A stretch of DNA of 64,000 nucleotides from Alphaproteobacteria bacterium. Lineage in GTDB: Bacteria > Pseudomonadota > Alphaproteobacteria > CAAHEQ01 > UBA3637. Where the stretch lies: assembly GCA_015062395.1 (NCBI GenBank), contig SUUS01000002.1:35028-99027 (forward strand). Direction: 5' to 3'. The translations under genes and the position numbers were made by a program. Each line of letters begins with the position of its first letter. Within the stretch, counting starts at the first letter, position 1. The notes under the pieces are model-generated. The model saw only the letters and a program-made list of their open reading frames with translations, was not told the origin of the DNA and searched no databases. Shown here piece by piece: positions 1 to 38,895 of this stretch.

Positions 1-53
1 ATTATTCGCGCAAATTGAACATTTAATTTTAAAAGGGAAAAAAGGAGTTTAAT

Positions 54-761
54 ATGGTAGAAAATTTAATGCAAATAAATGAAAAAAAACAAGAAGTTCC
101 TGCTAAATTTTTGGATGCAAAGGGTAATTTAAAGACGGATGTTTTATTGCAATCTTATTTAGAATTAGAAAAAAAATTAAGCAATATGGTAATGCTTCCA
201 AATGATGCATCATCCGAGGAAGAAAAGCGTTCCTTTTACCAAAAAATAGGGGTTCCAGACTGTGCTGAAAATTATCAATTAGAAATTAAACATGATTTAT
301 TGGCTAGCGATCCCCAGGTAAATCAAAAATTATTTGATTTAAGATTTACAAATCAACAGGCTCAAGCCGTTTATGATTTGGCCGCAGAAAAAGTATTGCC
401 TGTGATTGAAGAATTAGCTCAAGATTACGAGGCTGCACGTCAACGTTTAGCTTTGGAAAATCAATTTGGAGGAAAAGAACGTTTTGAACAAGTCTCACGT
501 CAAATTACAGCATGGGCCAAACAAAATGTATCTACGGATGTTTTTGATGCATTGTCAACAACTTACGAAGGGGTGATGACTCTTTATAAAATGATGCAAA
601 CAAATGAACCTGTAATGATGCCAAAAGGCATTTGTTCTCATGAAATTTTAGATGAAGAAGGGTTAAAAAAATTGATGATGTCGCCAAAGTATTGGAAAGA
701 ACAAGACCCTTTGACATTGAAAAAAGTGGCAGACGGATTTAATCGTCTTTACTCGCATTAA
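54..761 (+). CDS. Phage scaffolding-like protein (T7 gp9 position)
   Basis: AGGAG RBS precedes the ATG at 54. Acidic, coiled-coil-rich 235-aa protein lying immediately upstream of a gp10-like capsid gene. Assignment is by position only. Confidence 0.35.
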   Translation: MVENLMQINEKKQEVPAKFLDAKGNLKTDVLLQSYLELEKKLSNMVMLPNDASSEEEKRSFYQKIGVPDCAENYQLEIKHDLLASDPQVNQKLFDLRFTNQQAQAVYDLAAEKVLPVIEELAQDYEAARQRLALENQFGGKERFEQVSRQITAWAKQNVSTDVFDALSTTYEGVMTLYKMMQTNEPVMMPKGICSHEILDEEGLKKLMMSPKYWKEQDPLTLKKVADGFNRLYSH

Positions 762-881
762 TTTAAAAGATAATCGCATTTAAGGCGACCTTTTATTTTC
801 TTTTTATGATGGGCGGGGAACCATAACCCGTTATAAAAAATTTTGTTTTTTGTTTTAACTAAAAAAAAGGATATAATAAAT

Positions 882-1700
882 ATGACTTCTACAACTATTG
901 ATGCAGCTTTTGTAAAACACTTCCAAGCAGAAGTAGTGACTGCATATCAACAAATCGGTTCTAAATTACGTTCAACAGTTCGTTCTAAAAATAACGTTGT
1001 TGGTGTCAGTACAACATTCCAATTAATTGGTAAAGGTAATGCAACAACAAAAGAACGTAATGGTGTTATCAGCGCTATGGAATTTGAACACAAACCTGTC
1101 GAATGTGTTTTGACTGATTATTATGCTGGCGCATGGGTGGATAAATTAGATGAATTAAAATTGGGGCACGATGAACGCAGAGCAATTGCTCAAACAGGTG
1201 CATATGCTTTGGGTCGTAAGACAGATGAGTTAATTATCAATGCTTTAAATTCGTCAACAAATACAGTTTCAGATTCTGCTGTTGAGTTGAATAAAGAAAC
1301 CATTTTAGACGCATTTACAAAATTAAATAATGCTGATGTTCCAGATGATGGAGAACGTTATGCTTTGGTTTCTCCTGCTCAATGGAATCAGTTGCTTAAC
1401 ATTGAAGAATTTTCTTCATCTAATTATGTTGGAGATAAAACACCATTTATCGCAGGAATTGAAAGCCGTAAATGGTTAGGTATTAATTGGATTATGCATA
1501 CTGGTTTACCAAGCGATACTGGTTCTCATACGTGTTTCATTTATCATAAAAATGCAATAGGTCATGCTGTGGGAATGGATATTAAAACAGATATTTCTTG
1601 GCATGGAGACCATGCAGCTCACTTTGTCAATTCAATGATGAGTCAAGGGGCTTGTTTGATTGATGAAAAAGCTGTTGTAAAAATAGTTTGCTCTGATTAA
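882..1700 (+). CDS. Major capsid protein, T7 gp10-like
   Basis: N-terminus FVKHFQAEVVTAYQQ...VRSKNN..FQLIGKG aligns by eye with T7 gp10 FLKVFGGEVLTAFAR...VRSISSGKSAQFPVLGR. Real start is the internal ATG at 882, which has an AAGGA RBS. Confidence 0.65.
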   Translation: MTSTTIDAAFVKHFQAEVVTAYQQIGSKLRSTVRSKNNVVGVSTTFQLIGKGNATTKERNGVISAMEFEHKPVECVLTDYYAGAWVDKLDELKLGHDERRAIAQTGAYALGRKTDELIINALNSSTNTVSDSAVELNKETILDAFTKLNNADVPDDGERYALVSPAQWNQLLNIEEFSSSNYVGDKTPFIAGIESRKWLGINWIMHTGLPSDTGSHTCFIYHKNAIGHAVGMDIKTDISWHGDHAAHFVNSMMSQGACLIDEKAVVKIVCSD

Positions 1701-1714
1701 TGTTTTTTGATGTG

Positions 1715-1743
1715 GAGGGGAATTTATTTTCCCCTCTTTTTTT
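1715..1743 (+). terminator. Rho-independent terminator immediately after capsid gene (T7 T-phi-like placement)
   Basis: Perfect 8-bp stem gaggggaa/ttcccctc with a 6-nt loop, followed by T7. Confidence 0.6.
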
Positions 1744-2322
1744 ATGGAGAGAAAAATGGCACAATCTGCAATTTCTTTATGCTCTAAAGCTTTGATTAAG
1801 TTGGGAGCGCATCCGATAATTTCTTTTACAGAAAATACAGCAGAAGCGCAAGTTGCATTACAACTTTACGAAGCAACCAGAGATGCATTATTATCATCGT
1901 ATCCGTGGCATTTTGCAACAGCTCAAGAAGAATTATCGTTGTTGCGCGATGCTCCTTGCGCTGATTATGCTTATGCGTATCGGTTGCCAAATGATTTTTT
2001 GCGTGCTTTATCTGCAGGGGTTAATTCAAATGGCAAAGGCTTGAACTATCGAATTTATGAACGGACCTTGCATTGCGATTCTAAAAACGTGGTGTTGACA
2101 TATATCTTTAATCCAAAAGAAGAAAATTATCCACCTTTTTTTGATTATGTATTGATTTTAAAATTGGCTGCCGAATTTTGTTTGCCTTTGACTGAAAACA
2201 GTTCAAAAGCAAAACATTTAGAACAAATGGCAAAAGAAGCATTTAATCAAGCAAAGCTAATCGATGCACAGCAAAATTTACCACAAACAATAAATCATTT
2301 TCCTTTAATCGAGGTCAGATAA
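1744..2322 (+). CDS. Tail tubular protein A, T7 gp11-like
   Basis: 192 aa (T7 gp11 is 196 aa). LIKLGAHPIISFTENTAEAQVAL...SYPWHF is comparable to gp11 [23 protein letters not shown]...SRGWTF. Correct synteny after the capsid gene. Confidence 0.6.
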   Translation: MERKMAQSAISLCSKALIKLGAHPIISFTENTAEAQVALQLYEATRDALLSSYPWHFATAQEELSLLRDAPCADYAYAYRLPNDFLRALSAGVNSNGKGLNYRIYERTLHCDSKNVVLTYIFNPKEENYPPFFDYVLILKLAAEFCLPLTENSSKAKHLEQMAKEAFNQAKLIDAQQNLPQTINHFPLIEVR

Positions 2323-4229
2323 TGAGTAATTTAATCAATTATAAAACAAATTTTACAGCAGGGGCTGTTTCGCTTGATTTATTAGGTCGAACGGATTTGT
2401 CAGCTTACGATAATGGCGCACTTGAATTAAAAAATGTTTTTATCAGTCCAATAGGAGGAATTGAACGCAGAGCTGGTTTACGTTATATAGATACAATTGA
2501 CAATGCATATCGTTTGATTGCTTTTGCTTTTAATACTGCCCAAACATATTTATGTGTGTTGGGTAATGCATTTATTAAAGTTTATAAAAATGAAAATTTG
2601 ATACAAACACTTTCAACTCCTTGGCAAACAGATGACATACCACATTTGCGTTGGACGCAAAGTGCAGATACTTTATTATTGACGCATCCAGATTATGAGC
2701 CAATGATGATGACACGTCAAAATGATGAAAGCTTTGTTTTATCAAATTGGGTTTTTGATATGGGGGATGATGGGCAAAAGTATTGTCCTTTTGAAAAATA
2801 TGCTTCTGCGCAATCGACAATGAAAGCTGTTGGCGATGGAAATAACGTTGTCTTAACTGCAAGTGAAGATGTGTTTAATGAAAATTATATCAATCGACAC
2901 ATCAAAGTTGGAAAAGGCGAATATAAGATTACAGAAATAACGGATGCAAAAAATGCGAAGGCAAGTAAAATTGTTTTGGCTGAAAATTCTAATCCAACAA
3001 CAAATTGGTCTGAAGAAGCTTTTTCAAAAGACCATGGTTATCCTGTTTGCGTGACTTTCTATCAAGGTCGATTAGTCATTGGTGGTTCCAGAGATTTACC
3101 AAATAAACTTTGGTTTTCAAAAAGTTTTGCGATTATGAATTTTGACACAGGAACAGGCTTGGATGATGAAGCTATCGGATTTAGTTTGTTGTCCGATCAG
3201 GTGAATGCGATTTGTGGATTAATGCCAGGCAGACATTTACAAGTTTTTACATCTGGTTCAGAATGGATGGTTTCTGGAGAACCATTGACTCCTCAAAACA
3301 TTCAGTTGAAGCGTCAAACTAAAATAGGTTCGCCTCTTTATCGATTTGTTCCTCCTGTGGATGTCAGTGGTGCAACGTTGTTTGTATCCGAAAATGGACA
3401 AGAAATCCGAGAATTTTTATTCGCTGATTTAGAACAAGCTTATCAAGCGAAAAATGTTTCGTTATTGTCATACCATTTGATAAATAGACCCATCGATATT
3501 GACTATGATGCAAAACGCAGATTGGTTTATGTTATTATGGAAGACGGTTCAATGGCTTCGCTTACAAACTATCGTTCAGAAGAAGTGTTAGCTTGGAGTT
3601 CGCATGAAACACAAGGTAAATTTTTGTCTGTTTGTGTGTTAGAAGAGGAGGTTTACTTTTTAATCAATCGAGATGGAAAAACTTATTTGGAGGTTTTTGA
3701 TAATGAGGTCTTTACGGATTGTGCTTTTTTAGGGCAATCAGAAGAAGCTCATGAAACGTGGTCTGGTTTGTCGGTTTTGGATGGTAAAAAAGTAAATGTT
3801 GTTGCTGATGGAAGATTGGAAGAAAGCGTGGTAATATCTTCGAACAGCATCACATTATCACAAAAAGCAAAACAAATTCAAGTTGGTCTTGCTTATACAC
3901 ATACAGTTGTGCCTTTGCCACCGATTAAACAAATCGGTGTGGGCAATCTGCCATTAAAAGCCGTTCGTTTGGTGGAAGTTAATTTTAAAGTAATCGATAC
4001 AGCTTCTTTATTTTTAGATGTGGGGAATGGTTATAATGAATTTATCATTCAAAATGTAAATGATGATTACATATTGGATGGGGATGCAAAAGGTAAAACA
4101 AAAGATGTTTGTATCAGGGCGTTAGGATGGGTTCGAGACGGTGTTTCGCCTTTATGGAAAATACAAAGTACGCAACCTTTGTCCTGCAAGATTGTTTCTG
4201 TGGCAACATTAATGAAAGTGAGTGATTAA
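2322..4229 (+). CDS. Tail tubular protein B-like (T7 gp12 position), 635 aa
   Basis: Large ORF directly after the gp11-like gene with overlapping stop/start. Assignment is by synteny; sequence similarity is weak by eye. Confidence 0.4.
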   Translation: MSNLINYKTNFTAGAVSLDLLGRTDLSAYDNGALELKNVFISPIGGIERRAGLRYIDTIDNAYRLIAFAFNTAQTYLCVLGNAFIKVYKNENLIQTLSTPWQTDDIPHLRWTQSADTLLLTHPDYEPMMMTRQNDESFVLSNWVFDMGDDGQKYCPFEKYASAQSTMKAVGDGNNVVLTASEDVFNENYINRHIKVGKGEYKITEITDAKNAKASKIVLAENSNPTTNWSEEAFSKDHGYPVCVTFYQGRLVIGGSRDLPNKLWFSKSFAIMNFDTGTGLDDEAIGFSLLSDQVNAICGLMPGRHLQVFTSGSEWMVSGEPLTPQNIQLKRQTKIGSPLYRFVPPVDVSGATLFVSENGQEIREFLFADLEQAYQAKNVSLLSYHLINRPIDIDYDAKRRLVYVIMEDGSMASLTNYRSEEVLAWSSHETQGKFLSVCVLEEEVYFLINRDGKTYLEVFDNEVFTDCAFLGQSEEAHETWSGLSVLDGKKVNVVADGRLEESVVISSNSITLSQKAKQIQVGLAYTHTVVPLPPIKQIGVGNLPLKAVRLVEVNFKVIDTASLFLDVGNGYNEFIIQNVNDDYILDGDAKGKTKDVCIRALGWVRDGVSPLWKIQSTQPLSCKIVSVATLMKVSD

Positions 4230-4230
4230 A

Positions 4231-4542
4231 ATGGCGACTAAAGATTCTTTATTTTATGACTTAATTACAGGAGAAAATAAAACACAATTAAATTTAGAAA
4301 AACAAGCTACTTTATTGAAGCAACAAGAAAACATTAAAGAATACAAAAAAAAGCTGGGTTCATATCGTGCGAATATGGCTTCTCAAGGTGCAGGAGCTAA
4401 CTTATCCAGTGTTTTGGATGGATTGGCTCAAGACGTTGAAATTAAAAATAGTTTGGCAACGAATCAGCTGAATCAAAAAATCAGAAATGCAAACAGAACA
4501 AGACGTAAACAAACATTGTTGAATCTAGGATTAAAATCTTAA
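4231..4542 (+). CDS. Phage hypothetical protein (103 aa)
   Basis: ATG 2 nt after the upstream stop codon. Sits within the late module. No recognisable motif. Confidence 0.3.
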   Translation: MATKDSLFYDLITGENKTQLNLEKQATLLKQQENIKEYKKKLGSYRANMASQGAGANLSSVLDGLAQDVEIKNSLATNQLNQKIRNANRTRRKQTLLNLGLKS

Positions 4543-4558
4543 TTTTATCGAGATAAAA

Positions 4559-4849
4559 ATGAAACAGAATGAATTTGAAAAAGCAAAGGCAAAATTTTTA
4601 AAAATTTTGCCTAAAAAATTACAAGAAACTTTGCAAGCTTATCATCTGTTTACATCCGTTAAAGTTCCAGAAGATATTAAATCATTCGCAGCATATCATA
4701 CGGCTTGTAAAAATGCGTTGTCACATATGGTGTTGTTGATGAAAATGATACAGCTATCTGATTCAAATAATGCAAATAATTTGGTTGATGATTGGTTGGA
4801 AAAATCAAAGTTAGCTATTAGCCAATTGGAGGAAGAAGAGGATGAATAA
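4559..4849 (+). CDS. Phage small protein, possible small terminase subunit (T7 gp18 position)
   Basis: 96 aa with an acidic C-terminus. Overlaps the start of the large terminase by 8 nt. Assignment is positional only. Confidence 0.3.
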   Translation: MKQNEFEKAKAKFLKILPKKLQETLQAYHLFTSVKVPEDIKSFAAYHTACKNALSHMVLLMKMIQLSDSNNANNLVDDWLEKSKLAISQLEEEEDE

Positions 4850-6305
4850 TTTAAAAGCTTCTTTTACACAATTTGTTTGGATTTGGAATGAATTACAAGG
4901 TCTTCAATTACCAAAACATCATCGACGTATTTGTCATTTTTTATCAAGTAATTATTTGCAAAAAAAAGCTCATGCTTTATTGATGGCGTTTCGAAATTCC
5001 GGGAAATCAACTTTGGTTGGATTGTTTTGTGCATGGTTGCTTTATGAAAACAGCAATGTTCGCATTTTGATTATGTCAGCTGATTATGAATTGGCAAAAA
5101 AAATGGTTCGAAATGTTAAGCGAATTATTGAAAAACATCCTTTGACAGTACATTTAAAACCCAAACAAAAAGACCAATGGGCTTCTGACAGATTTACAGT
5201 TATTCGTTCTCAAGAATTAAGAGATCCGTCCGTTTTGGCACGAGGTATAGATGCAAATATCACAGGCTGTCGAGCTGATGTGATTGTTTGCGACGATGTA
5301 GAGGTTCCTAAAAACTGTGATACTCAAACCAAAAGAAATGATTTAAAAGAAAAATTATCTGAATTAGATTTTGTTTTAGTTCCGAATGGTTTTATGTTAT
5401 ATGTTGGAACGCCTCACACGCAAAAAACGATTTACGACGTCAGTCCGAACGGTTTTTTAAAGAACTTTAATCAATTAAAATTACCCATTTTAGATGAACA
5501 AGGGAATAGTAATTGGCCTGAACGATTTTCGTTGTTAAAAATAGAGGCTATTCGCAAACGAGCAGGACCGTTGAAATTTACCAGTCAAATGCTTCTTCAG
5601 CCAGTTAATTTAAGGCAAGGACATTTAAATACAGACAATTTGATTTTTTATCAGGATGCTTTGGATTATCGTCAAATTAATCAAAGCAGTGCAGTTTATA
5701 TTGGGCAAAGACAAATGATCAGCGCTAGTGCTTGGTGGGATCCATCTTTTGGTAAGTCGGATGCAGACAGAAGTGTTTTGGCGTGTGTTTTTTTTGATAA
5801 TCAAGGAAATGCTTTTGTTCATGATTTGGTTTATTTGACTGTTGAAAATGCAGAAAAATCAGCACAAATACAGTGTCAGAAAGTAGCTCAAATGATAAAG
5901 CTTTATCATTTGCCACAAATACGAATAGAAACAAATGGTATTGGAAAGTTTTTACCAGAGCTGTTAAAGCAAACATTGCAACAAATGCATATAGTATGTG
6001 CTGTTTTACCTGTTCATTCAAGCATTCCAAAATCGCTTCGAATTAGCGAAAGCTTGGATGCGCGTCTTGCCAGTTCTTCTTTGTGGTTGCATGAAAGAGT
6101 TAAACAAACGCCATTTATGGAAGAAATAACATCGTGGAATCCTCAAGCACAGAATATGCATGATGATGGTTTAGATGCTCTGTCTGGTTGTTTGTCGAGT
6201 GAACCAGTTCATATTGCAAAGCATTTTATTCCCATTCAGCCAGAACCCGATTGGCGCTATGGACAGATGATTAATAATTTTAATTTAGATGATGTAAAAC
6301 TTTAA
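4842..6305 (+). CDS. Terminase large subunit
   Basis: Walker A-like FRNSGKST near the N-terminus. Acidic catalytic patches VIVCDDVEVP. The C-terminal nuclease half has conserved D residues. Size 487 aa. Confidence 0.75.
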   Translation: MNNLKASFTQFVWIWNELQGLQLPKHHRRICHFLSSNYLQKKAHALLMAFRNSGKSTLVGLFCAWLLYENSNVRILIMSADYELAKKMVRNVKRIIEKHPLTVHLKPKQKDQWASDRFTVIRSQELRDPSVLARGIDANITGCRADVIVCDDVEVPKNCDTQTKRNDLKEKLSELDFVLVPNGFMLYVGTPHTQKTIYDVSPNGFLKNFNQLKLPILDEQGNSNWPERFSLLKIEAIRKRAGPLKFTSQMLLQPVNLRQGHLNTDNLIFYQDALDYRQINQSSAVYIGQRQMISASAWWDPSFGKSDADRSVLACVFFDNQGNAFVHDLVYLTVENAEKSAQIQCQKVAQMIKLYHLPQIRIETNGIGKFLPELLKQTLQQMHIVCAVLPVHSSIPKSLRISESLDARLASSSLWLHERVKQTPFMEEITSWNPQAQNMHDDGLDALSGCLSSEPVHIAKHFIPIQPEPDWRYGQMINNFNLDDVKL

Positions 6306-6319
6306 AATGGAGATTTTTT

Positions 6320-6742
6320 ATGAACAGAAATTTTTTTAATACGGCTGATGTGTTGGCGCGTACACTGTACGGTGAAGCCAGAGGCGAAGGGCTTATTGGA
6401 ATAGAAGCTGTCGCTTGTGTGATATTGAATCGTGTAGCTCTTTCAAAGCAGCACGCTTTTTGGTGGGGCAAAACGGTGGAGGAAGTTTGCCTAAAACCTT
6501 TTCAATTTTCTTGTTGGACACCATCCGATGCTAATTTTTATAAATTAATTCGAGTTAATGCGCAAGATGCTGTTTTTCGGATGTGTCAACGTGTCGCAGT
6601 TCGAGCATTAAGTGGAAACTTGCCTGATATAACAAAAGGTGCAACACATTATCATTCAAAGAATGTTAATCCTGCATGGGCTCGAAAATTAACACCGATT
6701 TTTGAATACAAAAATCATCTGTTTTATAAGGAGGTCTATTAA
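6320..6742 (+). CDS. Cell-wall hydrolase, SleB/Hydrolase_2 family (endolysin)
   Basis: TLYGEARGEG...AVACVILNRV...FQFSCW motif block typical of the SleB-like hydrolase family. Lies directly after the terminase. Confidence 0.7.
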   Translation: MNRNFFNTADVLARTLYGEARGEGLIGIEAVACVILNRVALSKQHAFWWGKTVEEVCLKPFQFSCWTPSDANFYKLIRVNAQDAVFRMCQRVAVRALSGNLPDITKGATHYHSKNVNPAWARKLTPIFEYKNHLFYKEVY

Positions 6743-7029
6743 TGACGCAATTTGAATTAGAAATTGGAAAGTTAATGGCGCAATTTGACAGTTTGCAACA
6801 GCAACTGGATAATGTCAGCAAAGGGATGGATAGGACAAATAAACAATTAATGCGTTGGCACCAAGATTTTGATAACTTTACAGGAGATATTATGGAAAAA
6901 ATGGAAAAACGTTTTGTTTTACGTTCGGAAATAGCTCCAATAAAAGCGATTTTGTCTGTGATTGCTGTTGCAACAGTCAGTGCTATTTGTTTAAGTTTGT
7001 CCGAATTAATTTTTAACAAATTATTTTAA
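6742..7029 (+). CDS. Holin-like membrane protein
   Basis: 95 aa with an N-terminal coiled coil and a single C-terminal TM (IKAILSVIAVATVSAICLSL). Overlaps the endolysin stop. Confidence 0.35.
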   Translation: MTQFELEIGKLMAQFDSLQQQLDNVSKGMDRTNKQLMRWHQDFDNFTGDIMEKMEKRFVLRSEIAPIKAILSVIAVATVSAICLSLSELIFNKLF

Positions 7030-7040
7030 TAAAAAAGGAG

Positions 7041-7223
7041 ATGAAAATGAATTTTATTATCAATCATATAAGTGAAATTTTGGTTGCAATCAGTGCCGTT
7101 GTGACAGCTGCCAGCGCTATTTGTGCTTTGACTCCTTCGACAAAAGATGACACCATAGTGTCGAAAATACGACAAGCGATGGATGTCTTGGCTTTAAATG
7201 TTGGAAAGGCAAAGAATGTATAA
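7041..7223 (+). CDS. Small membrane protein (holin/antiholin candidate)
   Basis: 60 aa with one TM (ILVAISAVVTAASAICAL). GGAG RBS. Confidence 0.35.
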   Translation: MKMNFIINHISEILVAISAVVTAASAICALTPSTKDDTIVSKIRQAMDVLALNVGKAKNV

Positions 7224-7420
7224 TGACAATTTTAGATAAATTATCAAATGGTATTCAGATGTTATGGCAAAATTTGAATGCTTTTATATTAGGAAAGGTT
7301 TTATCTGACAATGCAAGTTTACAAAAAGAAAATCAAAAACTACAAAAGCAAGTTAAAATTGCAACTCGTCCTGATTTGTGTTGGGATAAACTTATTCAGT
7401 GGTTGCGCGCTGACGTATGA
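7223..7420 (+). CDS. Rz-like i-spanin candidate
   Basis: 65 aa. Overlapped out of frame by a lipoprotein ORF. Coiled-coil QKENQKLQKQV. Confidence 0.3.
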   Translation: MTILDKLSNGIQMLWQNLNAFILGKVLSDNASLQKENQKLQKQVKIATRPDLCWDKLIQWLRADV

Positions 7421-7556
7421 AGCTCATTGTCCCCCTTTTCCTATGCCAGATAAAAGTATTGCAGAAGAATTGCAACTCTGCCCATTGTCTGATATGCCAC
7501 AATTTTTGGATTGGATGAATAAATTGCATACGTTGCAACAACAGTTGGATGCGTAA
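7311..7556 (+). CDS. Rz1-like o-spanin lipoprotein candidate embedded/overlapping in +1 frame
   Basis: Signal peptide with lipobox LFSGC. Pro-rich short protein. Starts inside the preceding ORF in a different frame. Confidence 0.3.
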   Translation: MQVYKKKIKNYKSKLKLQLVLICVGINLFSGCALTYEAHCPPFPMPDKSIAEELQLCPLSDMPQFLDWMNKLHTLQQQLDA

Positions 7557-7560
7557 AAGT

Positions 7561-7595
7561 ATCAGGCTTGTGATATACAAGCCTGATTTATATAA
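7561..7595 (+). terminator. Rho-independent terminator after lysis cassette
   Basis: 11-bp perfect stem atcaggcttgt/acaagcctgat with loop gatat, followed by a T-rich tail. Confidence 0.5.
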
Positions 7596-7836: not shown

Positions 7837-7853
7837 GGGGTGGGGGGGGGGGG
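7837..7853. repeat. Homopolymeric tract GGGGTG12
   Basis: Twelve consecutive G (7842-7853) preceded by GGGGT, in a non-coding region. Confidence 0.9.
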
Positions 7854-9049: not shown

Positions 9050-10555
9050 TCAACTATTAATTGTATTTTTTTGCTTTTTATGAAAATAAAGACCAAAAGC
9101 AATAAACAATAGACTTAAAAATAACGGAATACAGTTTCCCAATCGTGCATATAGGGGAGGGGGTAATGGTTTGGGAAGTTTGCTGTCTAATACGCCTTGT
9201 GAATCAAGCGGTAATGAAGACATAATTTGTCCCCAAGGGTAAATAACAGCGCTGATTCCTGTTCCTGCAACTCTGACAATGGGTAAGCCTTCCTCAACAG
9301 CGCGCATTTGAGCGCTGGCTAAATGTTGATAAGGACCAGCTGAAACGCCATACCAACCATCGTTAGTTAAATTAATCAGCCATTGTGGGCGCAGTTTAAC
9401 GTCGTTGTTGTCCACAACTTGGTGTGGAAATATGATTTCATAGCAAACCAACATTCCTGCTGGAGGGGCATTTTGTATGCGTACTGTTTTAGGTCCCGTA
9501 CCTGCTTTTAAATCTGAAGCAATCGGAACTATCTTTTCAAAAGGAAGCAGTCCACGCAACGGAACGTATTCGCCAAAAGGAACCAGATGAGATTTATCGT
9601 AATAACTTTGGATTTCACCCAAATCATTGATGACAAAAATAGAGTTAGCAACTTGCTGTTTTTGTGTATCAGCCAAACGCATAGAACCTGTCACCAATAC
9701 AGAACCTTGATTTAATGCCATCATTGTCATGGCTCTGGCTTGGTTATCTATATCAAGCAAAAATGGTGATGCGCTTTCGGACCACAAAACATGGGTTATT
9801 TTTTCATGTCCTGCTTTTTTGGATAAGTTGATGTGTTTCATGAAATTTTCTTCGGCTTTGTCTTTATTCCATTTTAACGTTTGTTCTATGTTCGGTTGGA
9901 CTAATCGAAGGTTGATTCCCCAAACATATTCGGGTGTTATTTGGTATAAACGAAGTGCTCCCAATAAACAAATAACCACAAATGAAGTTATGGAAATAAC
10001 AGCTGTTTTATATTGTTTTTTTATCAGTAAAAAAGGCGTTGAAAACCAAAAAAGGCTAAATAAAGTTAATCCATAAACACCAAAAACAGAGGCTGATTGC
10101 AAAACAGGTAAAAACTTAACCCAGACAGAACCTGTTAAATTCCATGGAAATCCTGTAAAAATCCAACTACGTATCCATTCAAAGATTGTAAAAACACCAC
10201 AAAAAATAAGTATTTTTGAACTAATTGAATTGGCCAAAATACAAAATAAAGCAGGAAACGCAAAGAATAAACCAAAAAATAATCCAAAGCCCAGGGGGAT
10301 AAGGGGCGATAATTGAGCAAATGCTCCCGCGTCGATTAACAATGCGTTGATAAGCCATAACATAGAGCAAGCACCCAAACCCAATCCAAAAGAAAATCCA
10401 GCAAAAAAAAGTTGTTTTTTATTTTTGGCGTTGTTCAGATACATAAAAAATAACGGATATGTGACGAGCAGTATAAAGATATAAGAAGTTGGAACGAATG
10501 CTAAAGCAGATAGTCCCCCCAATAAAATCAATAAAAAGTGATCGTATTTTTTCAT
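9050..10555 (-). CDS. lnt: Apolipoprotein N-acyltransferase
   Basis: N-terminal multi-TM region followed by a CN-hydrolase domain. Catalytic E (VQPNIEQTLKW), K, C (MLVCYEIIFP). 501 aa. Confidence 0.85.
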   Translation of the reverse strand: MKKYDHFLLILLGGLSALAFVPTSYIFILLVTYPLFFMYLNNAKNKKQLFFAGFSFGLGLGACSMLWLINALLIDAGAFAQLSPLIPLGFGLFFGLFFAFPALFCILANSISSKILIFCGVFTIFEWIRSWIFTGFPWNLTGSVWVKFLPVLQSASVFGVYGLTLFSLFWFSTPFLLIKKQYKTAVISITSFVVICLLGALRLYQITPEYVWGINLRLVQPNIEQTLKWNKDKAEENFMKHINLSKKAGHEKITHVLWSESASPFLLDIDNQARAMTMMALNQGSVLVTGSMRLADTQKQQVANSIFVINDLGEIQSYYDKSHLVPFGEYVPLRGLLPFEKIVPIASDLKAGTGPKTVRIQNAPPAGMLVCYEIIFPHQVVDNNDVKLRPQWLINLTNDGWYGVSAGPYQHLASAQMRAVEEGLPIVRVAGTGISAVIYPWGQIMSSLPLDSQGVLDSKLPKPLPPPLYARLGNCIPLFLSLLFIAFGLYFHKKQKNTINS

Positions 10556-12264: not shown

Positions 12265-12323
<59 letters not shown>

Positions 12324-12340
<17 letters not shown>

Positions 12341-12836
12341 AAAAAACCGTCCGAAAGGGCGGCTTTTTTGTATGTGTGCGTAAGGCGAAGAACTCGAAAG
12401 AGGGCGTGGCTTGAAAATCTTCCAAGAAGGACGATTTTCAAACGCAAGCCCAATGATACCTTATGTTTGATAGACCATGGCAATGGTCGCATCAAACATT
12501 AGTTTCCATTGCACGAAATTTTTCTGAAAGAAAAATGTGCCTCCACGCGCCTACCAAAAAAACCGTCCGAAAGGGCGGCTTTTTTGTATGTGTGCGTAAG
12601 GCGAAGAACTCGAAAGAGGGCGTGGCTTGAAAATCTTCCAAGAAGGACGATTTTCAAACGCAAGCCCAATGATACCTTATGTTTGATAGACCATGGCAAT
12701 GGTCGCATCAAACATTAGTTTCCATTGCACGAAATTTTTCTGAAAGAAAAATGTGCCTCCACGCGCCTACCAAAAAACCGTCCAGAAGGGCGGCTTTTTG
12801 TATGTGTGCGTAAGGCGAAGAACTCGAAAGAGGGCG
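12324..12836 (+). repeat. Tandem 216-bp direct repeats (2 full + 81-bp partial), each starting with the last 17 nt of tRNA-Lys (att-like)
   Basis: Unit = cctccacgcgcctacca + terminator hairpin ccgtccgaaagggcgg + about 175 bp. Copies start at 12324, 12540 and 12756 and are near-identical. The third copy diverges after 12836. Confidence 0.85.
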
Positions 12837-12952: not shown

Positions 12953-13975
12953 ATGGGAAAGGGAAAAACAATGTCATCAAAACAAAAAACATCTCAAAAA
13001 ATTTGGAATTTAACATCTGAACAACGTACTCATTTAACAGAAATGTTAAAAACAGCAGGATTTGTAGAACCAGCTACGATTAATAAAATGATTGAACGCA
13101 TTCGTACTTCAAAAACAGATGTTGGCCAAGCAATTATGACACGTTGGTTAAATAATCGTTCTGAAAACGGAATGAAAAAATGGATGGATAATCTTTTGTT
13201 TCGTTTACGTCATACAGAAATGACGCGTGAAAAATTAATAGATGTATTATCAAAACAGCCGACTTTGTTTTTCAGCAAACCAGAAACTTTATATGAAAAT
13301 GGAAAAACATTACAAGATAATTTAAAGCAAAAAGGGATTGAATTATCAGATAAAATTATTTTTAATTCTCAAATGTTTGGAACGGGTATTTTAGCACGTT
13401 CTCCAGATACGATTGCTAAAAACATTGAAAATTTAGTCAAAATTTTTGAAAAAAGAGGTGTCAATTTAAATCATGACGATTTTATTGAGCGTGTTTTAAA
13501 AGAACGCAACCAGTTGTTGATGCAAAAAGATGCAACTTTGGCGTCTAATATCGATACTTTGGCACGCGTATTGGCAGGGGCTGGTTATCCAATAACAATC
13601 CCCCAATATGCAAAGGCTTGTAGCAGCCAGTTGAGTTTGATATATAGAAAGCCTCAAACAATCGCAGCGAATTTTTCACGCGTATATGAATTTCTTGAAA
13701 ATGAACATTGTCGTTTAGCGTGTGATCCGAAAAAAGATATTAAAACGCCTGAAACGATGGTTACAAAAATTTTAGCAGATCCTGCTCAAATCGGATTGAG
13801 CGAGGATAATTGGAAAACACGTTGGTTATTGGCTTGTCAAATGCGAGAAAGCAATGGAAAAATTCCAAGTTATACACAAATTATGGGCGTGAAAAAGCCT
13901 GAAGTCGTTCGTCGTTTAACTGGATATCGTTGTCCTTTGATGCGTGCGCTTGATAACATAAAACAACGAGATTAA
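12953..13975 (+). CDS. Hypothetical protein (340 aa), orphan accessory gene
   Basis: Own promoter-like TTGCAA-17-TATTAT upstream and a strong terminator downstream. Alpha-helical. No recognisable catalytic motif. Confidence 0.4.
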   Translation: MGKGKTMSSKQKTSQKIWNLTSEQRTHLTEMLKTAGFVEPATINKMIERIRTSKTDVGQAIMTRWLNNRSENGMKKWMDNLLFRLRHTEMTREKLIDVLSKQPTLFFSKPETLYENGKTLQDNLKQKGIELSDKIIFNSQMFGTGILARSPDTIAKNIENLVKIFEKRGVNLNHDDFIERVLKERNQLLMQKDATLASNIDTLARVLAGAGYPITIPQYAKACSSQLSLIYRKPQTIAANFSRVYEFLENEHCRLACDPKKDIKTPETMVTKILADPAQIGLSEDNWKTRWLLACQMRESNGKIPSYTQIMGVKKPEVVRRLTGYRCPLMRALDNIKQRD

Positions 13976-28919: not shown

Positions 28920-31900
28920 ATGAAAAAAATAAATATATACATAATAAAGCAATTATTGCTCGGATTTGTTTTAATAGCTTTGGGAATGACAGCCTTGATT
29001 TGGCTGTCTCAAAGCTTGCGTTTGATTGATTGGATTGTCAACAAAGGTGTTTCTGTTAATTTATTTATTGAATTGACATTGCTTGTCTTGCCGAATTTTA
29101 TCGCAATTATTACACCTTTGGCGTTTTTTATTGTGTTGTTGTTTATTTATCAACGTTTGTTGGCAGACAGAGAGCTAATTGTCATGAAAGCCGCAGGGAT
29201 GTCAGCTTTTGATTTGGCAAAGCCAGCGTTATTTGTTGCCGTTTTGTTGACTGTTTTGGGATATTTTTTAACCCTTTGGTTGGTTCCTTATTCAGTGTCT
29301 CAATTTAAAGAATTGCAATTTAAAATTCGAAACAATTTGGCTCAAGTTGCTATACAGGAAGGAGAATTTAACCAACTGCCGAATAACATAACGGTTTATG
29401 TTCGGGAATTTAAACCATCAGGACATTTAAAAGGTATTTTAATACACGATGATAAAAACCCAGAAAAACGAGTCGTTATTGTCGCGCAAGAAGGCCGTTA
29501 TTTAATGTCTGACGGTAAGGCAAAAATTGATATGCTAGAAGGAACGCGTCAAGAATATGACCGTCAAACAGGGGCATTCAATTCTTTAAGTTTCCAAAAA
29601 AATGTCGTCGTTTTTGAAGAAAGTAAAAATAACAAAGTCAGAACAAGGGGTGAAGAAGAATTAACGTTAAAACAGTTGTTAGCTGCGCGTTCTGATGATG
29701 AAAATATAAAGCCACTTCAGTATCGTGAATATAAGGTTGAAGCTTTTAAACGCTTAACACAGCCATTGTACGCATTGGCATATTTGTTTGTTGGATTATT
29801 GCCTTTGTTGTTGGGACATTATAATCGTCGTGGACAAAGTGGGCGTGTTTATTTTGCTGTTGGATGCGTTGTTTTATTACAGTCAATGGCGTTGGGATTT
29901 GAAAATTTATCTAATAAAAATTTGTGGTTTTTAATTTTGATGGCAGCTAATTTATTGATTCCGATTGTCGTTGGTTTTGTCATTTTAAAAAGGGGGCGTT
30001 TGAGCTTAAAAAATAATATCCTCAACAAATTTTTAGCGCGCTTTTTTATCGTTTTAGCTTTGTTCTTTCCAACGCCTATTTTTGGTGCTTCGAATGTTCA
30101 GTTCGTTTCAGATACTCAAATTCATAAAGATGCACCAGTCGATTTTGAAGCAGATAGTATTTCTTACAGTCAAAATGCCCAAGTTATGACTGCTACTGGA
30201 AACGTTATGCTGAATCAAAAAGGGACTGTTTTGCAAGCTGATAAATTAGTTTATAATCAGCAAAGCGAACAAGGGATGGCACAAGGAAACGTTGTGTTGA
30301 CACGTCCAGACGGGGTTAAATTATACGCAAAAAGTGCAGAATTGTCTGAAAATTTTAATAATGCATTATTTGAAGATGTTTCACTAAAATTAGCTGATGG
30401 TTCAACCTTTAGTTCGCAGTCTGTCGTTCGAAAAGATAATGGCAATACATCTGTTTTTGATAAGGCATTTTTTACACCTTGTACTTATTGTACGCCAGAA
30501 AAACCTTTATGGGATATATCAGCGCAACAAATTAAACACGACTATGCGCAACAAGAATATGAATTTTATCATGCTTTTTTTGATGTCAAGGGAGTTCCTA
30601 TTTTTTACTGGCCATATTTAACATTTCCAGATTTTCAAGTTAAACGAAAAACGGGTTTTTTAACGCCTTCTTTAGCTAATTCAACAGAAATGGGATTTGG
30701 ATTTGAATTGCCATTCTTTTGGGATATTTCAGATTCTCAAGACTTATATTTAGAGCCAATCATAACAGGTCGTCACTTTCCTTTAATTCAAGGGCAATAT
30801 CGTGGAATTTATCATCAATCGCAATTAATGACGTCTTTTTCGATGACAAAAGATGATGATGATAATAATAAAGAAGGTCATATTAAAATCTATTATCAAA
30901 ATGATTTAACATCTTCATTGCGTTTTACTGGGCAGTATTATCGTGTTAGCAATCAAACATATTTTCGACGTTATCCGATTAATAATGTTGACGATCAAGA
31001 ACCGTGGATTAAAAGTTTCGGTAAGTTAGAGTATTTTGGTGCGCAAAGCTATGGATTTTTGAATGTGATGGATTTTCAAAATTTACGTCGTTATGTTTCA
31101 AATGATTCGATGCCTATTGTCAGTCAGATAGACTATTCTTATACAAGCAAGCCAATTTGGAAAGGGTTATATTCTGTTTCAACAATCAATGGTGCTGATA
31201 TTTACAGAAAAACAGAAGAACGTTCTACGCGTTTGTCATTCGAACAGTCTTTTGTTTTACCGTACATTTCATCATGGGGGCTTGTTTTTGAAAACAAGCT
31301 ATCTGCCAGAGTAGATGGTTATGCCTTGCGTTTTGAAGATAATCGTTCAACGAATCAAGGACGCTTTTATACAGTGGCATCTTCGAAAATCAGTTATCCT
31401 TTGGTGTCTTATGGCAAAAATTATAGTCAAGTTATTGAACCTGTTTTAATGGGCGTTTTAAGTCCAAATTCTAAACCAGATAATCGTATTCCAAATGAAG
31501 ATAGTTTAGATGTTGTTTTTGATGACGTTAATTTATTTTCGGCAAACCGATATGACGGTTATGACAGGGTTGAAACAGGTACTCGCTTAAATTATGGTTT
31601 ATTGTGGCGTTTGTATGGTCCTAAAAATATGTACTTATCTGCAATGCTTGGGCAATCCTATCGTATTCGAAGAGATAATACGTCTATGGCAAATGCTGGT
31701 TTTGAACGTCATTTTTCGGATTATGTTGGATATTTGAATATGGACTTTAAAGATTTTGGTTTAGGATACCGTTTTCGCTTTAACCAAGAAGATTTTAGTC
31801 AGGAAATGTCCGAGGCGCGTTTTTACATAGGAAGAAATCCTTTAAAATTAAATGTTTCTTATTTGTATTTGAAAGCATCCAAGGAAGCTTTAATAAATAA

Positions 31901-32156
31901 AGCGCTCAAAGATAGGGAAGAAATTTATATTTCTGTCAACTCTAAATTAACACAAGCTTTTAGTTCTTTTGGGTATTATCGATACGATTTATCTAAAGAT
32001 GGTGGTCCAACAGAGGCTGGTGGGGGCTTGCAATACGATAATGAATGTATTAGTTTATTATTCACTGTAGAAAAAGAATTTACAAAAGATCAAAATTATA
32101 AAGGGGATACATCCTTTTATGTTCGATTGCTTCTAAAGACTTTGGGAGGTATTTAA
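28920..32156 (+). CDS. lptD: LptF/LptG-family permease fused in-frame to LPS-assembly protein LptD (1078 aa)
   Basis: Residues 1-360 form a complete YjgP/YjgQ permease (3 TM, periplasmic domain, 3 TM). The residues after that begin with a signal-peptide-like FLARFFIVLALFFPTPIFGA and continue as an OstA/LptD beta-barrel. No in-frame stop separates the two. A TTG at 30000 with a GGGGG RBS-like motif is a possible internal start. Confidence 0.7.
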   Translation: MKKINIYIIKQLLLGFVLIALGMTALIWLSQSLRLIDWIVNKGVSVNLFIELTLLVLPNFIAIITPLAFFIVLLFIYQRLLADRELIVMKAAGMSAFDLAKPALFVAVLLTVLGYFLTLWLVPYSVSQFKELQFKIRNNLAQVAIQEGEFNQLPNNITVYVREFKPSGHLKGILIHDDKNPEKRVVIVAQEGRYLMSDGKAKIDMLEGTRQEYDRQTGAFNSLSFQKNVVVFEESKNNKVRTRGEEELTLKQLLAARSDDENIKPLQYREYKVEAFKRLTQPLYALAYLFVGLLPLLLGHYNRRGQSGRVYFAVGCVVLLQSMALGFENLSNKNLWFLILMAANLLIPIVVGFVILKRGRLSLKNNILNKFLARFFIVLALFFPTPIFGASNVQFVSDTQIHKDAPVDFEADSISYSQNAQVMTATGNVMLNQKGTVLQADKLVYNQQSEQGMAQGNVVLTRPDGVKLYAKSAELSENFNNALFEDVSLKLADGSTFSSQSVVRKDNGNTSVFDKAFFTPCTYCTPEKPLWDISAQQIKHDYAQQEYEFYHAFFDVKGVPIFYWPYLTFPDFQVKRKTGFLTPSLANSTEMGFGFELPFFWDISDSQDLYLEPIITGRHFPLIQGQYRGIYHQSQLMTSFSMTKDDDDNNKEGHIKIYYQNDLTSSLRFTGQYYRVSNQTYFRRYPINNVDDQEPWIKSFGKLEYFGAQSYGFLNVMDFQNLRRYVSNDSMPIVSQIDYSYTSKPIWKGLYSVSTINGADIYRKTEERSTRLSFEQSFVLPYISSWGLVFENKLSARVDGYALRFEDNRSTNQGRFYTVASSKISYPLVSYGKNYSQVIEPVLMGVLSPNSKPDNRIPNEDSLDVVFDDVNLFSANRYDGYDRVETGTRLNYGLLWRLYGPKNMYLSAMLGQSYRIRRDNTSMANAGFERHFSDYVGYLNMDFKDFGLGYRFRFNQEDFSQEMSEARFYIGRNPLKLNVSYLYLKASKEALINKALKDREEIYISVNSKLTQAFSSFGYYRYDLSKDGGPTEAGGGLQYDNECISLLFTVEKEFTKDQNYKGDTSFYVRLLLKTLGGI

Positions 32157-35409: not shown

Positions 35410-36111
35410 ATGCATTTGAAACATCTTTTAACATCTGTTTGTTTGGTTTTGGCATTGAATATAGGTGTTTGTAAACCTGTGTTGGCGCGTCATGTGGTTT
35501 CTGACCCAGCAGCGACGGCAATGTCAATACAAAACTTGGTTCAAGATATTTTGGCTGTTGTTAAGAAAATCGCTGATTTGAATGAGTTTATCAAGCGTAA
35601 TACTAGTCAAGGAAGTATTGGTGCTATAGCCAATAAATTGGACTTTTCAAAAATGCAAAAAGAAGTTTTGGATGCTGCAAAATCTACTGTTCCTGAAACC
35701 TTAAAAGATGTTGGGTTTGAAGATATGATGAAAGATACGCAACAAATGATGTCTTTCCTTAAGGAGGATTTGATGCTTCCTTTACAGTCTTCATCGCAAG
35801 AGGAAGCACTGACGGATACGCAAAAGCAAGAACGTCTGGAAAAACGTCAAGATGTTAAAAATACCGCGATTTCTGATGCTTATGCAACTGCTGTTGCGTA
35901 TTTAAACAGAAAAACAAAAGCTCAAGAAGAAATTGTTAATCCGACTAAAAAAGTGGCAGGTAGTGCAGATACCATTCATGCAAAAGAAGGGGCTGCAAAC
36001 GAAGCTGCTTTAGCGCGATTAAATGAAGGAATTGAACGCAATGCATTGTTGGCTGAACTTTTGAAATTGCGTGCTGCAGAAGCTTTGGGAAATATACCGT
36101 TGGATGGTTAA
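35410..36111 (+). CDS. Secreted alpha-helical protein, VirB5/TrbJ-like candidate (paralog a)
   Basis: Signal peptide. 233 aa. Helical, charged composition. Paralogous to the next ORF (VQDILAVVKK/VQEIIEVVQN; SIGAIANKLD/EIGAIMPKVID). Confidence 0.3.
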   Translation: MHLKHLLTSVCLVLALNIGVCKPVLARHVVSDPAATAMSIQNLVQDILAVVKKIADLNEFIKRNTSQGSIGAIANKLDFSKMQKEVLDAAKSTVPETLKDVGFEDMMKDTQQMMSFLKEDLMLPLQSSSQEEALTDTQKQERLEKRQDVKNTAISDAYATAVAYLNRKTKAQEEIVNPTKKVAGSADTIHAKEGAANEAALARLNEGIERNALLAELLKLRAAEALGNIPLDG

Positions 36112-36138
36112 ATAATCGAAGAGGAAAGGATATGCGCA

Positions 36139-36843
36139 ATGTTGAAAACAAAAACTTTTATTTCTTCTTTTCTTTTAGGCGTGGTTTTGACGGCTTCTCC
36201 TGCTTATGCTGTTGTTGATATCGTTAAATTGTTGCAACATACATTGCGAAATGTGCAGGAAATTATCGAAGTTGTTCAAAATGAATCATCATTAAAAGAA
36301 TCTACAAATTATTCAAAGTTGCAAGGTGAAATTGGTGCAATAATGCCCAAAGTCATTGATTTAGGTTCGAAAGTAAAAGACGCTTCTTTTACGCCTGTTT
36401 TGCCCAGTGAAATTCAAGGTTTGTTGGGTGATAAAGGAATGGCTGCAGTTCCTCAACTCCGTTCATTTTTATCTAAAGATTTAAAATCTATCAATGTTGG
36501 AGATGTTGTTGGACAACGTGATGCTTTAGCAGCAATTAGTGAACAGATGAATTTGGGTGGTATTGAAGCTTTTAAAAACGGAAAAGAAGCAATGGCATTG
36601 CTGAATAAAGCGCCCAATGAATTGATGCAACAGCTCAGTGTTGCAACGGGCGCGAAAGATATGCAAAACAAAATTACTCAAGAAACAGGAAATAGTATCC
36701 AAATTTTAAAAAGTGATATTGCGATTAATCAGCATTTGGCCAGAAAAATTGAAACGCTGGCTCAAAGTTTAAGATTGGATGTTAAAAAAGGATTGCAAGA
36801 GGCTGGTAAACAGCTTACAGAAAATACAGGAGGTCAACAATGA
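36139..36843 (+). CDS. Secreted alpha-helical protein, VirB5/TrbJ-like candidate (paralog b)
   Basis: Signal peptide MLKTKTFISSFLLGVVLTASPAYA. 234 aa. Paralog of 35410-36111. Confidence 0.3.
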   Translation: MLKTKTFISSFLLGVVLTASPAYAVVDIVKLLQHTLRNVQEIIEVVQNESSLKESTNYSKLQGEIGAIMPKVIDLGSKVKDASFTPVLPSEIQGLLGDKGMAAVPQLRSFLSKDLKSINVGDVVGQRDALAAISEQMNLGGIEAFKNGKEAMALLNKAPNELMQQLSVATGAKDMQNKITQETGNSIQILKSDIAINQHLARKIETLAQSLRLDVKKGLQEAGKQLTENTGGQQ

Positions 36844-38879: not shown

Positions 38880-38895
38880 AAAGGGAGGTAATATA

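Follow-up and report, generated by a model that had tools for sequence, protein, structure and literature searches.

The 64,000-nucleotide stretch of alphaproteobacterial DNA analysed here (the window; contig SUUS01000002.1) opens within a single gene block, positions 54-7556 on the + strand, that encodes phage structural, packaging and lysis proteins. With its upstream part, read from a second contig, the block makes up a complete element of ~11 kb, consisting of one operon plus a divergently transcribed S24 repressor gene. We regard it as probable that this element is a domesticated, chromosomally fixed cassette of podovirus origin that makes phage-like particles, similar to a gene transfer agent (GTA) or to PBSX and not a prophage, and we include in this reading the whole of the mechanism proposed below. 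That the element is selected, non-mobile and vertically inherited we hold with considerable confidence. That it is a true DNA-transferring GTA is a more tentative proposal; packaging of host DNA and its transfer between cells are steps that we infer. A first-pass annotation of the window had offered "prophage or domesticated remnant", of which the domestication is retained here and both the prophage and the remnant are given up, the element being maintained.

Few GTA families are known. The present candidate is widespread in gut and free-living lineages, with at least 592 species representatives that include abundant uncultured gut and rumen Alphaproteobacteria, and if the reading is correct it would bring GTA-like elements into the Rhodospirillales and give Gram-negative bacteria a short-tailed type. 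The hypothesis is directly testable, because the element is also present in the cultivable and tractable Azospirillum brasilense and Thalassospira xiamenensis.

Conservation and inheritance of the element

GTDB was scanned at one genome per species, and at least 592 species representatives were confirmed to contain a capsid relative; the best 80 of these, each with ±10 kb of flank, constitute the related loci referred to throughout. The upstream part of the element was taken from a separate contig, L001, which is 100% identical to window positions 1-4110 (L001 position 9120 being window position 1) and extends 9.1 kb further left. All of the 80 loci are from uncultured gut or rumen Alphaproteobacteria, with capsids 62-85% identical; one is named Candidatus Scatocola, a genus that NCBI places in the Rhodospirillales. 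The protein collection contains 4024 capsid homologues, the exact 272-amino acid (aa) protein is present on 22 contigs, and at least 600 further contigs with a capsid relative are catalogued as viral in IMG/VR.

When 28 proteins were mapped onto the 80 loci, nearly all of the loci were found to share the S24 repressor (- strand), orf126, orf134, portal, Bbp19-like protein, scaffold, capsid, gp11, gp12, orf96, large terminase subunit (TerL) and endolysin, and the median cluster span is 10.7 kb. Two gene orders are observed, type A and type B, with orf96, TerL and endolysin placed ahead of the portal in type B. These orders are clade-specific, and the nearest capsid neighbour shares the type A or type B order in 79 of 79 cases. 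Core genes are of intact length in 94-100% of the loci. Among the 11 genes for which the ratio of nonsynonymous to synonymous substitution (dN/dS) was estimated, it is lowest in the capsid (0.05); TerL, portal, gp12, S24, endolysin, scaffold, gp11 and orf126 lie at 0.11-0.15, and orf134 and orf96 at 0.20-0.24. These values are rough because dS is near saturation (1.4-1.7). The small open reading frames (orfs) and the regulatory motifs are also conserved across relatives.

The element diverges together with its chromosomal neighbours. Pairwise identities of the concatenated portal, capsid, gp12 and TerL correlate with those of flanking host proteins (Spearman 0.56-0.89). At a median identity of ~70%, the core stands between two groups of host proteins: GltX and AtpD are better conserved (80-81%), and Lnt, an esterase, an ABC binding protein and an MlaC-like protein are less well conserved (50-59%). 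The GC content of the cluster follows that of its flanks (r = 0.91, range 0.33-0.55, and up to 0.72 in Azospirillum); within the window no composition jump was found at the element boundary, the block having 34.8% GC and the remaining window 36.1%. The flanking host genes (lnt, XRE, T2SSE/F, ATP synthase and gltX) are recurrent within clades and locally rearranged.

The IMG/VR contigs include larger versions of 17-18 kb, with high GC (58-73%) and the same layout, which exact look-up assigned to Azospirillum, Thalassospira, Caenispirillum and Rhodospirillales metagenome-assembled genomes. Many Azospirillum species share one 90%-identity capsid cluster, located on the ~3-Mb chromosome; in the Azospirillum locus L124 (5832-8815) a host-type 781-aa HAMP-PAS-GGDEF-EAL protein and a 213-aa orf are encoded between scaffold and capsid, and a pectate-lyase-fold tailspike is encoded between gp12 and terL. 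In a third gut lineage (L097, 8101-12863; L094-L113 are arranged alike) two orfs take the place of a single terL, one for an ATPase (200 aa) and one for a T7-type nuclease (287 aa). The two halves are 3.3 kb apart and enclose three reverse-strand genes, for a 217-aa protein, an XRE regulator with a double helix-turn-helix and a 516-aa DnaB-family helicase. In this lineage LipB is encoded upstream of the endolysin, and the capsid is still intact. Either the terminase there is a two-piece enzyme or the element is inactive in that lineage. Together these versions would form a natural domestication series, from 18 kb with a tailspike to 11 kb without, from coupling to the SOS response to its loss, and from an intact to a split terminase gene. 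Intact genes, co-divergence and host insertions in combination fit neither an active prophage, nor a satellite, nor a neutral remnant.

The borders of the element are formed by host genes. Directly left of the S24 repressor are genes for an RsmB-like methyltransferase, FtsJ, T2SSF and T2SSE; to the right of the block are a small orf, an XRE regulator, lnt (9050-10555, - strand), RNase H, a thioesterase and tRNA-Lys, so that the module does adjoin lnt on an alphaproteobacterial chromosome and with a reduced gene set, as described at first pass. A phage contig misjoined to the chromosome had been considered there too. The element is not such a misjoin, because the left host junction is identical in four of the six contigs compared (from six samples, among the 22 with the exact capsid) and the right junction, with the XRE regulator followed by lnt, is seen again in five related species.

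Functions required for replication and integration are missing. A phmmer search with lambda Int and with the integrase, RNA polymerase, primase, DNA polymerase, internal virion proteins and fibre of phage HTVC019P gave zero matches in the 64-kb window, L001 and the 80 loci, and the portal, capsid and TerL queries did match. Pfam searches of the called genes in the window neighbourhood revealed ordinary host genes and no integrase. In the flanks of the 80 loci, 133 flank-family representatives correspond to 194 Pfam families, of which the top 25 are housekeeping; no recurrent integrase is among these families, and a very divergent recombinase could lie elsewhere. The longest direct repeat bracketing the element is 12 nt, and a search for attachment (att) repeats at both ends yielded only chance 11-12-mers. 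The description of the module as "integrated" is therefore not upheld, since the element lacks an integrase, replication genes and any att repeat above 12 nt, and co-diverges with its neighbours. Extension upstream, proposed as a way of finding the RNA polymerase, DNA polymerase and integrase, gave none of the three; the portal was found and then the end of the element.

The absence of gp14-16 and of the tail fibre, also noted at first pass, is confirmed by the phmmer search and by two adaptor-domain queries (the Azospirillum tailspike and a 182-183-aa fibre-adaptor protein of another gut lineage), which are unmatched in the window and in the 80 loci. Between gp12 and terL the window contains solely the 106-aa and 96-aa orfs. 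The Pfam and PHROG searches gave no match to a major tail, tape-measure or other long-tail protein family.

Two properties expected of a GTA were thus found: genes of phage origin for particle structure and packaging that are unaccompanied by any for replication or integration, and, within the ±10 kb context and with dS near saturation, long-term vertical inheritance under purifying selection.

Phage kinship and gene content

Gene families were assigned with Pfam and PHROG profiles (the latter designated phrog_), and comparisons with T7 were made by hhalign of family profiles. The portal family matches T7 gp8 at 98% (E 9e-14) and the TerL family matches T7 gp19 at 99.8% probability (E 4e-29), both over the full length. 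Matches to T7 gp10A (E 0.007) and gp12 (E 0.017 over 215 columns) are weak, and no significant match was seen to gp11 (E 0.63), gp9 (E 0.19) or gp18, nor between the Bbp19-like protein and gp7.3 or gp13, or between the lysis orfs and gp17.5 or gp18.5. The homology to gp10 and gp11 that had been noted by eye is accordingly weak for the capsid and not significant for the gp11-like protein, and it is the portal and terminase that are clearly T7-type. The gene order is T7-like: portal, scaffold, capsid, terminator, tail tubular A, tail tubular B, small orf and large terminase.

The designation "T7-like" is thus apt for the gene order, portal and terminase and is not supported in its narrow sense, since the element has no phage RNA polymerase, its capsid belongs to PF19821, and the nearest isolate is only 31-39% identical. 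The terminase is of T7 type, 27-32% identical to podovirus terminases that include those of T7-like (Autographiviridae) phages, and the isolated phages nearest by capsid are Pelagibacter and Vibrio podophages. The module is of a broad T7-like type of podovirus morphogenesis and falls outside the Autographiviridae proper. It shares with that family the late (class III) gene order, a portal and TerL homologous to gp8 and gp19, and a scaffold that matches PF05396; unlike T7 and its relatives, it lacks a single-subunit RNA polymerase, DNA polymerase, primase, the internal proteins gp13-16, the gp17 fibre and an integrase, its capsid has only marginal similarity to gp10, and it carries a CI-like repressor and a SleB-type endolysin and is chromosomally fixed.

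The closest isolated phage is Pelagibacter phage EXVC031P Hodr, with identities of 34% (portal), 39% (capsid), 38% (gp11-like), 31% (gp12-like) and 39% (hydrolase). Its portal-scaffold-capsid-tail order resembles that of type B as judged by orf positions and lengths, the Hodr genome being unannotated. Hodr differs in having a 34-kb, circularly assembled genome of ~60 genes with large orfs (783 and 1247 aa) past gp12, and in a terminase and scaffold without detectable relation to those of the element; no homologue of the S24 repressor, orf126 or orf134 was found in its genome. The pelagiphages of the HTVC019P type are T7-like, temperate and integrase-bearing. Chromosomal residence alone is therefore unremarkable, and the earlier remark that a chromosomal T7-like module is unusual because such phages are lytic is outdated.

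Table 1. Features of the element, listed from left to right; L001 positions refer to the separate upstream contig, all others to the window.
Feature	Position	Strand	Evidence and remarks
S24 repressor, 211 aa	L001 5465-6100	-	PF00717 E 1e-23; matches phage CI-type repressor PHROGs
orf126	L001 6297-6677	+	small orf, first of operon
orf134	L001 6690-7094	+	small orf
orf61	L001 7249-7434	+	small orf
Portal, T7 type	L001 7437-8909	+	PF12236 E 2e-121
Bbp19-like protein, 82 aa	L001 8923-9171	+	between portal and scaffold
Scaffolding protein, 235 aa	54..761	+	PF05396 Phage_T7_Capsid E 9e-7, above curated cut-off; in 79/80 loci
Major capsid protein, 272 aa from ATG 882 (orf open from TTG 843)	882..1700	+	PF19821 E 1e-70; phrog_3437 E 6e-76
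Intrinsic terminator-like hairpin and T-run	1714..1744	+	between capsid and gp11-like genes; stem 1714-1737 followed by seven Ts; dG -15.6
gp11-like tail tubular protein A / adaptor, 192 aa	1744..2322	+	phrog_394 'tail protein' E 7e-49; phrog_9239 'tail tubular protein' E 1e-14
gp12-like tail tubular protein B / nozzle, 635 aa	2322..4229	+	phrog_376 E 5e-140; Pfam Phage_nozzle E 4e-4, below cut-off
orf106, 106 aa	4222..4542	+	after gp12 in both gene orders; no family match
orf96, 96 aa	4559..4849	+	phrog_31793 (function-unknown family) E 5e-14; helical, acidic C-terminus
Large terminase subunit TerL, T7 gp19 type, 487 aa	4842..6305	+	phrog_38 E 3e-83; HTVC019P TerL by phmmer E 2e-29
Endolysin, SleB-type cell-wall hydrolase, 140 aa	6320..6742	+	PF07486 E 3e-19; phrog_938 endolysin
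orf95, lysis-cassette member	6742..7029	+	from sequence: coiled coil and C-terminal hydrophobic helix; in 43/80 loci
orf60, small membrane protein, holin candidate	7041..7223	+	phrog_9685 E 1e-14; one hydrophobic helix
orf65, i-spanin candidate	7223..7420	+	from sequence: coiled coil; conservation poor
orf81, o-spanin candidate	7311..7556	+	from sequence: lipobox-like LFSGC; overlaps orf65 in another frame (Rz/Rz1-like pair)
Hairpin closing right end of operon, 12-bp stem	7561..7587	+	RNAfold dG -16.8; A/T-rich tract after; fails T-run rule of terminator tool

The features of the element are listed in Table 1. The scaffold, capsid, gp11, gp12, two small orfs, terminase and lysis cassette are all on the + strand at the positions and in the order first described, and L001 supplies the upstream continuation that had been predicted, with the repressor, small orfs, portal and Bbp19-like protein. 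The strong terminator reported after the capsid gene is likewise present, and a hairpin followed by a T-run within 130 nt of the capsid stop occurs in 46 of the 80 relatives, with differing stem sequences, compared with 19 of 79 control windows placed inside gp12.

Several of the small orfs can be given candidate roles. orf96 lies directly 5' of terL in both gene orders and on position alone is a candidate small terminase subunit; profile comparison of orf96 with T7 gp18 and with PDB sequences gave no significant match. orf106 has BLAST matches in few of the 80 loci, and a 126-aa orf at the same place after gp12 in 27 type-B loci was judged orf106-like by eye; orf106 may be a minor virion or ejection protein. 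For the orf126 and orf134 families, profile searches against PDB sequences gave nothing significant. orf134 is a tentative candidate for a permuted papain or NlpC-P60-like cysteine hydrolase, in which a His-before-Cys pair, putatively H36 and C98, would sit on a papain-like fold. The four small orfs up to 7556 look typical of a candidate holin and Rz/Rz1-type spanin pair.

Regulation, proposed mechanism and alternative explanations

In the DNA-binding half of the S24 repressor 23 positions are at least 95% conserved over 72 loci, which we would not expect of a phage immunity repressor. The self-cleavage set is present in the window lineage (A94-G95, S134 and K171), is intact in 41 of 45 type-A loci and has been lost in all 27 of the 27 type-B loci. 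A candidate operator, TAGGAAT, is 24-fold enriched in the spacer between S24 and orf126; type-B loci (for example L033, L053, L063, L069 and L077) have a TAGGAAT-N19-ATTCCTA inverted repeat around the -35 and keep the S24 DNA-binding domain. A perfect match to the LexA box GTTC-N7-GTTC follows closely on the -35 element of the promoter that drives the operon; 29 of 42 type-A and 0 of 27 type-B loci have it, and its density is 2.4 per kb in the regulatory spacer against a background of 0.045 per kb. The candidate LexA site is GTTCTTGTTTTGTTC, and the motif is the alphaproteobacterial LexA consensus as cited in PMC3091678. Type-A loci are taken to be wired to the SOS response because the self-cleavage set is intact and a LexA box lies at the promoter; type A would thus be SOS-coupled, often doubly, with both links lost in type B, and in the lineage of the window the element is probably SOS-inducible. 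The S24 gene was also considered as the host LexA, which is ruled out by the lack of a LexA DNA-binding Pfam domain and by its matches to phage CI-type repressor PHROGs.

We propose the following sequence of events. DNA damage would activate RecA, upon which the S24 repressor, whose cleavage residues are intact, would cleave itself, and in many relatives LexA would leave its box as well. Loss of S24 would derepress the operon promoter, which overlaps the candidate TAGGAAT operators. The product of orf126 may then carry RNA polymerase through the post-capsid terminator and along the 10-kb operon; the same terminator would otherwise raise the output of capsid and scaffold above that of the genes behind it. 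Procapsids would assemble on the portal and be filled by the orf96/TerL terminase with chromosomal DNA, the expected substrate because no phage replication supplies concatemers, and the gp11-like and gp12-like adaptor and nozzle would close the head. The SleB-type endolysin with the holin and spanin candidates would lyse the producer and free the particles. In gut lineages, fibre and ejection genes may be encoded elsewhere, as in the GTA of Faecalibacterium described below, or else the particles may deliver no DNA.

A number of observations weigh against this reading. In the gut lineage, the ±10 kb around the cluster yielded no receptor-binding or ejection protein, for which reason its particles may be non-infective. 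The flank survey covers ±10 kb; the saturation of dS limits the selection estimates, and the correlated divergence with neighbours could stem in part from recombinational co-transfer of whole regions. The window's own S24-orf126 spacer is without a LexA box. The fold match of orf126 to the antiterminators Q and AlpA and to sigma region 4 is weak, and a fold search of BFVD returned nothing for it. The favoured reading is drawn from gene content and genome comparison, and a virus-like particle study, in which the gut alphaproteobacterial family CAG-239 appears only in a statistics table, reports no packaging event for that family.

Comparison with known domesticated systems shows both likenesses and differences. 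The element resembles RcGTA in being a phage-derived head-tail-packaging cluster in Alphaproteobacteria that lacks replication and integration genes, passes vertically between generations and is kept by purifying selection; in both, accessory parts may lie at other places in the genome. RcGTA differs in being siphovirus-like, the portal and capsid of the element belonging to the podovirus families PF12236 and PF19821 (a distinction made by family and not by direct alignment), and in being under host regulators such as GafA, whereas a CI-like repressor and a lysis cassette are part of the element itself; the function of RcGTA is experimentally established, and the element has been recognised solely through its genes. 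Large RcGTA-like clusters are absent from the Rhodospirillales (PMC5721377).

FpGTA of gut Faecalibacterium is a ~10.5-kb podovirus-like operon (TerS, TerL, portal, scaffold and capsid) that is near-ubiquitous in the genus; its genes for lysis and for the fibre or receptor-binding protein are at a second locus, 125 kb away (PMC12946183). Its particles, their proteome and packaged host fragments of 8.4-8.9 kb were shown experimentally, and it was published in 2026 as the first GTA of short-tailed morphology (PMC12946183). In the literature searched it is the only podovirus-like GTA-like element that we found described. Both systems have a short-tailed-phage-like operon of similar size, gut hosts and a main operon without fibre genes; FpGTA differs in its Gram-positive Firmicutes host and in having its lysis genes at the second locus, and the two are likened by description and not by sequence.

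BaGTA of Bartonella is an alphaproteobacterial GTA that co-diverges with its host and comprises 29 genes over ~79 kb, tied to a run-off replication origin and with long tails reported (PMC9662315). It is described as a much larger system and is set apart from the element by description only. TerL identities among known GTA families are reported as only 14-20% (PMC9662315). A low GC content, proximity to lnt and a compact particle cluster had suggested that the element might itself be BaGTA, which was rejected, as its homologues are in uncultured gut Alphaproteobacteria and BaGTA is different and larger.

The element may represent a further, independently domesticated GTA family in Alphaproteobacteria, the first in the class to derive from a podovirus, in Rhodospirillales-type lineages (uncultured gut and rumen bacteria, Azospirillum, Thalassospira and Caenispirillum), the part of the class from which large RcGTA-like clusters are missing, with regulation evolving from SOS-coupled to SOS-uncoupled (type B) and with gut lineages pared down to ~11 kb without a fibre; we advance this as a working proposal short of probable. 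No description of the present cluster family was found in the literature searched, which does not prove that none exists.

Among the alternatives, the one that survives best is domestication for SOS-triggered altruistic lysis, for a killer particle of the PBSX or AlpR/AlpA kind, or for a decoy or defence against podophages, with packaged DNA as a by-product, and we give it a minor share of credence. PBSX of Bacillus subtilis is a myovirus-like killer particle under a DNA-damage-responsive repressor and is conserved in the species. In Pseudomonas aeruginosa AlpR is a LexA-like repressor, the first gene of the system encodes a Q-like antiterminator, and AlpBCDE encodes no capsid. The element would have in common with both a DNA-damage-responsive repressor over a chromosomal phage-derived or lysis operon, and the weak fold match of orf126 fits AlpA; the combination of S24 repressor, Q/AlpA-like regulator and lysis genes parallels AlpR-AlpA, as far as a weak fold match allows. 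The LexA box at the promoter of type-A relatives and the lack of fibre and ejection proteins in the gut lineage agree with a lytic or killing role, and the FpGTA authors likewise do not decide this point for their own element (PMC12946183). Lysis alone, however, would not require the conserved particle genes (portal, scaffold, capsid, tail and terminase), on which purifying selection is strong, and nothing recognisable as a killing module is seen in a podovirus tail that lacks a fibre. The genes of PBSX are unrelated to those of the element.

A phage satellite, such as a phage-inducible chromosomal island (PICI) or a capsid-forming-PICI-like element, that relies on a helper phage to provide its replication signals, its fibres or its induction is improbable. 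The element's size of ~11 kb is satellite-like, and it has its own capsid, portal and terminase and no fibre or replication genes; yet it also has no integrase, replication initiator, primase or att site, its chromosomal neighbourhood is fixed and co-diverging, and it possesses its own tail adaptor, nozzle and full lysis cassette, with no helper-interference genes recognised.

An inert, decaying prophage remnant that persists by chance is still harder to credit. The reduced gene set, from which fibre and core proteins have been lost, would be expected of a remnant, as would the terL of one lineage split by inserted genes that include a DnaB-family helicase; against this, 11 of the 11 tested genes are intact and under purifying selection between species near synonymous saturation, the capsid is 62-85% identical over at least 80 species and thus above several host proteins, and the small orfs and regulatory motifs are conserved.

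Least likely of all, and already largely refuted, is a functional, inducible temperate T7-like prophage with its early region (integrase, RNA polymerase and DNA polymerase) elsewhere or beyond the stretch: such phages exist, as HTVC019P with its integrase illustrates, a full morphogenesis, packaging and lysis set with a CI-like repressor is in place, and relatives are listed as viral contigs in IMG/VR, but host housekeeping genes abut both ends, no integrase, replication or RNA polymerase gene and no att repeat is seen in the 64 kb plus 9 kb or in the 80 loci with ±10 kb, the element co-diverges with host genes and has clade-fixed rearrangements, the repressor DNA-binding domain and operator are conserved across species, unlike the expected prophage immunity regions, and where a prophage should be patchy and at variable sites, at least 592 species representatives with recurrent neighbours within clades are observed.

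Flanking genes and further observations

The human faecal entry MT838907.1 (L169), labelled "UNVERIFIED: Bacteriophage sp.", is a fragment of the present chromosomal cluster. The IMG/VR entries L087-L166 are fragments of the cluster catalogued as viral, and ~18-kb provirus calls are found in Azospirillum genomes. MT838907.1 and the IMG/VR entries are probably mislabelled host loci. Because these apparent host loci are catalogued as viral, prophage and virus counts for these bacteria are inflated.

Between the lysis cassette and the small orf, XRE regulator and lnt are ~700 nt without a convincing gene, which contain a G-run, GGGGTGGGGGGGGGGGG, at 7837-7853, a possible slippage-prone tract. An Rfam search of the whole window gave tRNA-Lys as its sole match and no RNA family at this stretch.

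The tRNA-Lys gene (CTT; 12265-12340) is followed by a perfect tandem duplication of 216 nt (12323-12538 and 12539-12754) that starts within the 3' end of the tRNA, and a third, partial copy of the unit is present at 12772-12836 (83% identity over 65 nt). The duplication yields two near-identical spurious orfs on the - strand, and it could have arisen in the assembly or else mark a site at the tRNA where integration and excision took place repeatedly. Beside the repeat a 340-aa orf (12953-13975) has a weak mTERF-like Pfam match (E 6e-4) and no homologue in the 80 loci.

Further into the window, a 1078-aa product (28920-32156) is matched by both the LptF/LptG permease and the LptD Pfam families, which suggests a fused lipopolysaccharide-transport protein, and is followed by SurA and KsgA. 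Five orfs without a Pfam match (35410-42227) precede a group of type IV secretion-like genes: VirB8 (42586-43347), CagX/VirB9 (43437-45059) and a giant protein of 2488 aa (45159-52625), in which 'Bflower' repeats occur together with a TrbI/VirB10 domain.

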